The position numbers were made by a program, and so were the translations under genes. 30,989 nucleotides of DNA from a virus (lineage: Duplodnaviria; Heunggongvirae; Uroviricota; Caudoviricetes). Where the stretch lies: IMG/VR virus record IMGVR_UViG_2537561692_000010. One strand, given 5' to 3'. The notes beneath the pieces were generated by a model. That model did no database searches and was not told the DNA's origin. It saw only the letters and a program-made list of their open reading frames with translations. Positions 29,861-30,876 of the stretch are shown here, piece after piece (the first letter of the stretch is position 1; each line of letters opens with the position of its first letter).

Positions 29861-30186
29861 AGACCTTCCGCTGGAAAGTGAAACCCGGTATGGATGTGGC
29901 TTCGGTCCCTTCTGTAAGAAAGGTGCGCTTTGGTGATGGCTATTCTCAGCGAGCGCCTGCCGGGCTGAATGCCAACCTGAAAACGTACAGCGTGACGCTT
30001 TCTGTCCCCCGTGAGGAGGCCACGGTACTGGAGTCGTTTCTGGAAGAGTACGGGGGCTGGAAATCCTTTCTGTGGACGCCGCCTTATGAGTGGCGGCAGA
30101 TAAAGGTGACCTGCGCAAAATGGTCGTCGCGGGTCAGTATGCTGCGTGTTGAGTTCAGCGCAGAGTTTGAACAGGTGGTGAACTGA
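29857..30186 (+). CDS. M: Minor tail protein M, 109 aa
   Basis: Lambda gpM-like, same length. Confidence 0.9.
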   Translation: MKTFRWKVKPGMDVASVPSVRKVRFGDGYSQRAPAGLNANLKTYSVTLSVPREEATVLESFLEEYGGWKSFLWTPPYEWRQIKVTCAKWSSRVSMLRVEFSAEFEQVVN

Positions 30187-30876
30187 TGCAGGATATCCGG
30201 CAGGAAACACTGAATGAATGCACCCGTGCGGAGCAGTCGGCCAGCGTGGTGCTCTGGGAAATCGACCTGACAGAGGTCGGTGGAGAACGTTATTTTTTCT
30301 GTAATGAGCAGAACGAAAAAGGTGAGCCGGTCACCTGGCAGGGGCGACAGTATCAGCCGTATCCCATTCAGGGGAGCGGTTTTGAACTGAATGGCAAAGG
30401 CACCAGTACGCGCCCCACGCTGACGGTTTCTAACCTGTACGGATGTCACCGGGATGGCGGAAGATCTGCAGAGTCTGGTCGGCGGAACGGTGGTCCGGCG
30501 TAAGGTTTACGCCCGTTTCTGGATGCGGTGAACTTCGTCAACGGAAACAGTAGCCGATCCGGAGCAGGAGGTGATCAGCCGCTGGCGCATGAGCAGTGCA
30601 GCGAACTGAGCGCGGTAGTGCCTCTTTTGTACTGTCCACGCCGACGAAACGGACGGCGCTGTTTTTCCGGGACGTATCATGCTGGCCAACACCTGCACCT
30701 GGACCTATCGCGGTGATGAGTGCGGTTATCACGGTCCGGCAGTCGCGGATGAATATGACCAGCCGACGTCCGATATCACGAAGGATAAATGCAGCAAATG
30801 CCTGAGCGGCTGTAAGTTTCGCAATAATGTCGGCAACTTTGGCAGCTTCCTTTCCATTAACAAACTTTCGCAGTAA
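30186..30876 (+). pseudogene. L: Minor tail protein L, disrupted by multiple indels
   Basis: The N-terminal 100 aa are lambda gpL-like, then the ORF terminates at 30503. Middle and C-terminal gpL segments are found in ORFs 30528..30716 and 30679..30876 in shifted frames. Confidence 0.75.

Follow-up and report, generated by a model that had tools for sequence, protein, structure and literature searches.

The stretch of DNA analysed here (the window, 30,989 bases) is a lambdoid prophage of Escherichia coli and makes up the entire draft contig AQCD01000156.1 of assembly GCA_000358695.2, from the enterotoxigenic E. coli (ETEC) isolate p0305293.8. [quoted passage not shown] Several colonies per patient were sequenced in the project as Illumina HiSeq2000 paired ends from 300-bp inserts at >200x and assembled with Celera Assembler (PMC4462620), and 208 isolates were deposited through the same pipeline. 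A literature search for the WGS accession returned nothing. The contig divides into two parts:

1 to 16707, + strand: unique part, specific to the prophage at the rspB/ydfJ (Qin-type) locus (copy A below), accurately assembled; it holds an IS100 end, BCCT transporter cargo, Q, a methyltransferase, two tRNAs, lysis genes and bor/iss
16708 to 30989, + strand: late-gene region, with cos at 16762/16763 and the genes from nu1 to the start of K; very probably a chimeric consensus of at least two paralogous lambdoid prophages

From cos onward (16763-30989) the window aligns at ~97-98% identity with lambda bases 1-14241, which span cos, nu1 and the genes up to the start of K. Upstream of cos, near-exact matches to positions 1-16762 were found in eight complete ETEC genomes. 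In the comparison with one of these sister strains, ETEC-2265, the two sequences are of equal length with three mismatches and no indels, and two of the mismatches, at 16708 and 16735, lie at the beginning of the repeat.

Two features of the unique part deserve separate mention. A three-gene cassette on the - strand (4192-6223) encodes a ParA-like ATPase (5393-6223; PF13614, E = 1e-37) and proteins of 168 and 231 amino acids, for neither of which a credible Pfam or PADLOC match was found. It adjoins BCCT-transporter and DUF2254 cargo genes (565-3909), and might be a partition or defence module. A 427-amino-acid ORF on the - strand (9819-11102) is placed like a moron, with the Q antiterminator on one side and the DNA methyltransferase on the other; searches of Pfam and PADLOC gave no match, and its counterparts in sister genomes are labelled 'hypothetical protein'.

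Interrupted and uninterrupted late genes

Four late genes are broken in the deposited sequence:

21433 to 21842, + strand: lesions in gene C (gene 21179-22493), five deletions of one base, each located before the nested nu3 start (21888)
25770 to 26267, + strand: lesions in gene V (gene 25708-26435), an inserted G at 25770 and 14 deleted bases within 26133-26267
27085, + strand: one-base deletion in the T part of the G-T frameshift gene, on a site (T/C) that differs between the two prophage copies described below
30186 to 30876, + strand: gene L, minor tail protein (Phage_tail_L), nine bases missing in eight events, with six frame changes

The preliminary description, made from the sequence alone, had reported L as broken by several indels in this interval and C, V and T as disrupted in the same manner, and both statements hold with the counts listed above. 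Its further statement that gpL is spread over three ORFs is roughly right, but understates the damage. As in lambda, the L start codon (30186) overlaps the M stop codon; the gene closes with a TAA whose last base is 30876. Relative both to lambda and to the prophages of sister strains, the nine absent bases follow window positions 30442, 30445, 30515, 30550, 30552, 30590, 30616, 30645 and 30874, and the reading frame homologous to L consequently runs 0>1>0>1>0>2>1. The gene caller keeps only two ORFs, an N-terminal one of 105 amino acids (30186-30503, Phage_tail_L profile positions 1-58) and a C-terminal one of 65 amino acids (30679-30876, profile positions 140-206). Both match PF05100 (E = 1e-26), which establishes homology to the gpL family, and the M-to-K stretch that contains them (29857-30989) shares 97.6% nucleotide identity with the M-L region of lambda. 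The deposited sequence lacks the uninterrupted L ORF of ~232 amino acids, whereas the sister-strain copies encode 232 amino acids. We judge the interruption of L to be an artefact, on the grounds developed below.

The G-T slippery site (GGGAAAG at 26849) is undamaged, and the genes nu1, A, W, B, nu3, D, E, FI, FII, Z, U, G, H and M run without interruption and are ~97% identical to lambda. The clustering of lesions within the late region is far from random. An alignment with lambda alone made the deletion clusters visible, but not the reason for the clustering. One further block resembles a lesion cluster in such an alignment: in the tape-measure gene H, positions 28266-28460 are strongly diverged from lambda with many small indels, and the product has 859 amino acids versus 853 in lambda. 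This stretch tracks sister-strain alleles without an indel, with three switches between copy A and copy B inside it. We therefore rejected the block as a set of lesions; it is allele divergence common to sister strains, that is, natural mosaicism.

Two lambda-like prophages in sister genomes

Complete sister genomes contain a pair of lambda-like prophages, of which one (copy A) occupies rspB/ydfJ and the other (copy B) adjoins the bio operon. The two are 96.4% identical over 18.4 kb, and 96-98% identical in their late regions. Throughout, copies A and B are proxies taken from the sister strains TW10722 and ETEC-2265 rather than p0305293.8's own. Within the unique part, an alignable stretch (16307-16587) carries the copy-A allele at 63 consecutive informative sites. 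The unique half is ~100% identical to the sister genomes, whereas the best match to the late region among 5,426 complete genomes reaches 99.1%.

The late genes broken in the window are intact in these genomes. In TW10722, copy A at the rspB/ydfJ locus has no lesion in C, V, T or L; for ETEC-2265 and 602354, the stretches of copy A retrieved end before L and contain C, V and T in intact form; and in copy B every late gene is intact. These observations bear on the possibility that the window is a genuinely decaying, cryptic prophage whose C, V, T and L genes are being inactivated by an accumulation of small deletions. In favour of decay, the record as deposited does have frameshifts in all four genes, E. 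coli prophages commonly decay, and the copy-A prophage of sister strains does carry IS insertions. Yet the genes are intact in complete sister genomes wherever the sequence was covered, and decay would not have spared the adjacent unique DNA of the same contig.

In ETEC-2265, an ISCro1 element (IS66 family) is present in both lambdoid copies (copy A, L002 34808-37423; copy B, 841129-858088). In copy A it interrupts the gene for the terminase large subunit, which in the window (gpA) is uninterrupted; at copy B, the same two-piece match recurs in five other complete sister genomes. Its presence in both copies could reflect gene conversion between them, or a duplication error in long-read assembly.

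The contig starts within IS100 (1-317) and stops within gene K (30989), both of them repeated DNA, as expected of a break in short-read assembly. We examined whether the downstream end corresponds to the fork at which the repeat copies part. The contig ends ~150-650 bp ahead of the rise in A/B divergence rather than exactly at the fork, and the position of the end is thus weakly supportive.

Deletions map to A/B variant sites

A three-way alignment placed the window's missing bases at positions that distinguish copy A from copy B. We quantified this with a graph alignment in which each column emits the A or the B base and skipping is cheap at variant columns only. Of 29 single-base deletions in the late region, 28 fell on the 345 A/B SNP columns among 14,246, which amount to 2.4% of sites (binomial P = 1.6e-44; P = 3e-39 when a column scores as a match wherever a gap placed in it can be moved to a SNP). 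Within the clusters, the SNP columns dropped were 5 of 5 in C, 14 of 14 in V and 8 of 11 in L. At the single insertion, 25770 in V, two neighbouring SNPs each retain both alleles.

Decay predicts lesion positions that are independent of paralog variation, and the deletions were instead confined, save for one, to paralog SNPs. A neutral process cannot direct 28 of the 29 deletions to the 2.4% of positions at which the paralogs vary, nor can it yield 14 deletions within about 135 bp. Private substitutions are not in excess either: in the alignment, all but five or six window bases match copy A or copy B.

The deletion that stands apart is in L, where eight of the nine missing bases lie on A/B SNP columns. 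The ninth, at 30874, is in an AAA run at the stop codon, which it leaves unchanged; TW10722 has no A/B SNP there. L also contains substitutions, at 30647-30780, that are unlike either TW10722 copy (for example, Ser to His at 30730-30731). We considered that these 'private' substitutions might be errors and rejected this, because the 134-bp segment that carries them occurs verbatim in 340 complete E. coli genomes. The allele is thus natural, perhaps from the strain's own copy or from a third prophage, and the proxies are accordingly not quite identical to whichever of the two supplied it.

A second explanation invokes sequence of generally low quality, with random indels arising from low coverage, read ends or homopolymers and unrelated to repeats. 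Nearly all of the errors are one-base deletions, a pattern typical of some sequencing chemistries. But the data are Illumina reads at >200x (PMC4462620), the deleted bases lie mostly outside homopolymers and coincide with paralog SNPs, and the unique 16.7 kb of the same contig has zero indels relative to a complete sister genome. We rejected low-quality or homopolymer error, to which we assign very little probability, on these counts; the artefact is not one of generic quality but a failure of the consensus at sites that vary between A and B.

Mosaic consensus and singleton proteins

Where the window retains a base at the TW10722 A/B variant sites, it follows B at 238 and A at 159, with a gap at the remainder, in ~70 alternating runs. 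The mosaic reaches into genes that are open. The portal protein B (533 amino acids) and the tape-measure protein H (859 amino acids) differ from those of both copies and, among about 15 billion proteins, were found only on this contig, whereas the G, U and E alleles of the window occur on at least 1,000 contigs. As such, the sequences of B and H are chimeric consensus, and open genes of this kind look sound only superficially. The earlier statement that the intervening genes are intact and nearly identical to lambda is thus correct as to open frames and ~97% identity, but fails for B and H, and a dN/dS analysis of these genes, which had been proposed as a check, would be meaningless given the chimeric B and H.

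The truncated products are similarly restricted. Those of L, V and C were found in the window's assembly alone, and the 105-amino-acid N-terminal product of L on the window contig alone. That truncated products are known from these assemblies only is a further point against decay.

Discordance among isolates of the same patient

The chimeric Z protein of the window was found on only four other contigs, from isolates p0305293.4,.5,.6 and.10. These sibling contigs are 7-12 kb in length and lie entirely within the repeated segment. The five p0305293 isolates are treated as clonal on the basis of PMC4462620, in which the only patients named as non-clonal are two others, P0299917 and P0299438. The late genes of the siblings read as follows:

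p0305293.6: C, FI, V and G broken; T intact
p0305293.5: V, H and K broken, L of 208 amino acids; T intact
p0305293.10: C, V and T broken
p0305293.4: V, L, K, I and J broken; T intact

As in the window, the siblings' deletions lie on A/B SNPs: 50 of 52, 16 of 16 and 23 of 27 in the three siblings that could be scored. For one sibling contig (L010), only sites up to copy-A position 31000 were used, since the K-I-J region is divergent and the graph alignment failed beyond that point. The five assemblies disagree pairwise at 23-64% of the A/B SNP columns that they share.

Individual lesions vary in the same way. Three of the C-cluster sites dropped in the window are also dropped in p0305293.6, and two in p0305293.10. 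The T deletion site (27085) is dropped again in p0305293.10 and is called as A or B in the three other siblings. Sites deleted from L in the window carry copy-B alleles in p0305293.5 (8 of 8) and in p0305293.6 (the first three, which are all that its contig covers), and p0305293.4 has the same L dropouts as the window. The V cluster (the equivalent of window 26128-26275) loses variant bases in all five assemblies, to an extent that differs among them; its recurrence in five of five implies a systematic trigger in the V stretch.

Fixation of the same lesions in related strains, a pattern that the preliminary description took as confirmation of real pseudogenization, is contradicted twice over, by complete sister genomes with intact genes and by clonal siblings with different lesions. 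Together with the positional evidence above, differing lesions in clonal isolates of the same patient make genuine decay of C, V, T and L highly improbable.

The sibling assemblies also bear on a third explanation, in which the window is a real A/B gene-conversion recombinant with only its indels artefactual, or else the product of a mixed culture of two strains. Lambdoid prophages recombine often, and a natural third allele of L is present in the window. Some allele runs are common to all five p0305293 assemblies, for instance in Z, and suggest that the strain's copies differ somewhat from those of TW10722. However, real recombination in a clonal population cannot produce disagreement at 23-64% of sites among siblings. 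A full-length tape-measure protein is encoded in four of the five assemblies (the window and three siblings), and each such protein is confined to its own contig, which a real recombinant would not explain. Nor need a mixed culture be invoked, as copies A and B occur together in individual complete sister genomes. A true recombinant or a mixed culture thus has only a very slim chance of being correct.

Origin of the frameshifts

Given the restriction of deletions to paralog-variant sites, the mosaic and the discordant siblings, the frameshifts in C, V, T and L are very probably an artefact of a consensus built from the collapsed repeats of two paralogous prophages, and not pseudogenization. 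Between the two possibilities left standing by the preliminary description, decay or a data artefact, it is the latter that fits deletions placed at paralog SNPs, and the former that conflicts with intact sister genomes and differing siblings. In the real genome, C, V, T and L are most likely undamaged in both prophage copies. The prophages behind the contig are almost certainly intact and lambda-like, which makes the finding biologically ordinary.

The sequence of events we propose is as follows. Overlap-layout-consensus assembly by Celera would have pooled the Illumina reads of copies A and B into one layout. At most variant sites the consensus would have taken one or the other allele, giving rise to a fine A/B mosaic. 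In some stretches, the alleles were probably split into separate columns, each about half gaps; in such columns the gap would outvote the base, and the variant base would be dropped. Once, at 25770, both alleles would have been kept, to give an insertion. The expected outcome is clusters of one-base deletions exactly at paralog-variant sites, which would disrupt C, V, T and L in the deposited record only. That the deletions match variant sites, that the window is a mosaic, that the siblings disagree and which sequencing method was used are direct observations; the column-splitting step is inferred.

A biological process with the same footprint can be imagined: real deletions by a novel mechanism that removes the mismatched base from heteroduplex between the prophages during recombination. 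If true, prophage late genes would be inactivated rapidly, and differently from isolate to isolate, in a single patient. No observation requires such a process, and the pattern across five assemblies fits software behavior far better; we regard it as the least probable of all the explanations considered here.

Significance and comparison with known systems

The case serves as a warning. All five of the project assemblies examined carry invented frameshifts and chimeric proteins where paralogous prophages were merged. The portal and tape-measure proteins of the window have their own WP_/UniRef entries, and singleton proteins of this kind would bias figures for prophage decay and pseudogene number, as well as for pangenome size and diversity within hosts. 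The question that exposes them, whether indels fall on the paralog-variant sites of a complete relative, is a cheap and portable test.

Similar to the lambda late operon, the late region runs from nu1 to K in the same gene order, at about 97-98% nucleotide identity over lambda bases 1-14241. Unlike lambda gpL, the deposited L is nine bases short, and sister-strain prophages encode a normal L of 232 amino acids. With the cryptic prophages Qin, Rac and DLP12 of E. coli K-12 the window shares the rspB/ydfJ neighbourhood and lambdoid gene content. Large blocks of those prophages have disappeared as a result of deletions and IS insertions; we know of no case among them of dozens of one-base deletions limited to paralog-variant sites, and in this they are unlike the window.

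The closest parallels are errors of assembly. The mixing of similar repeat copies by assemblers and polishers has been described for Canu/HiCanu (PMC7545148), and collapsed repeats have been reviewed as a class of bacterial assembly error (PMC13577107). For this symptom in Celera Assembler, we found no description in the literature, only general statements on collapsed repeats. Like other collapsed-repeat or mixed-paralog errors, the present one involves near-identical copies with one assembled representation, a consensus that switches between copies, and errors at paralogous variants, and the p0305293 contigs lie inside the repeat or end within it. Unlike the Canu/HiCanu cases, it arose in a short-read Illumina/Celera assembly of 2013 and not in a long-read assembly. 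It also differs from the mere mixing of alleles in collapsed repeats, in that here the variant base was systematically dropped, leaving one-base deletions.
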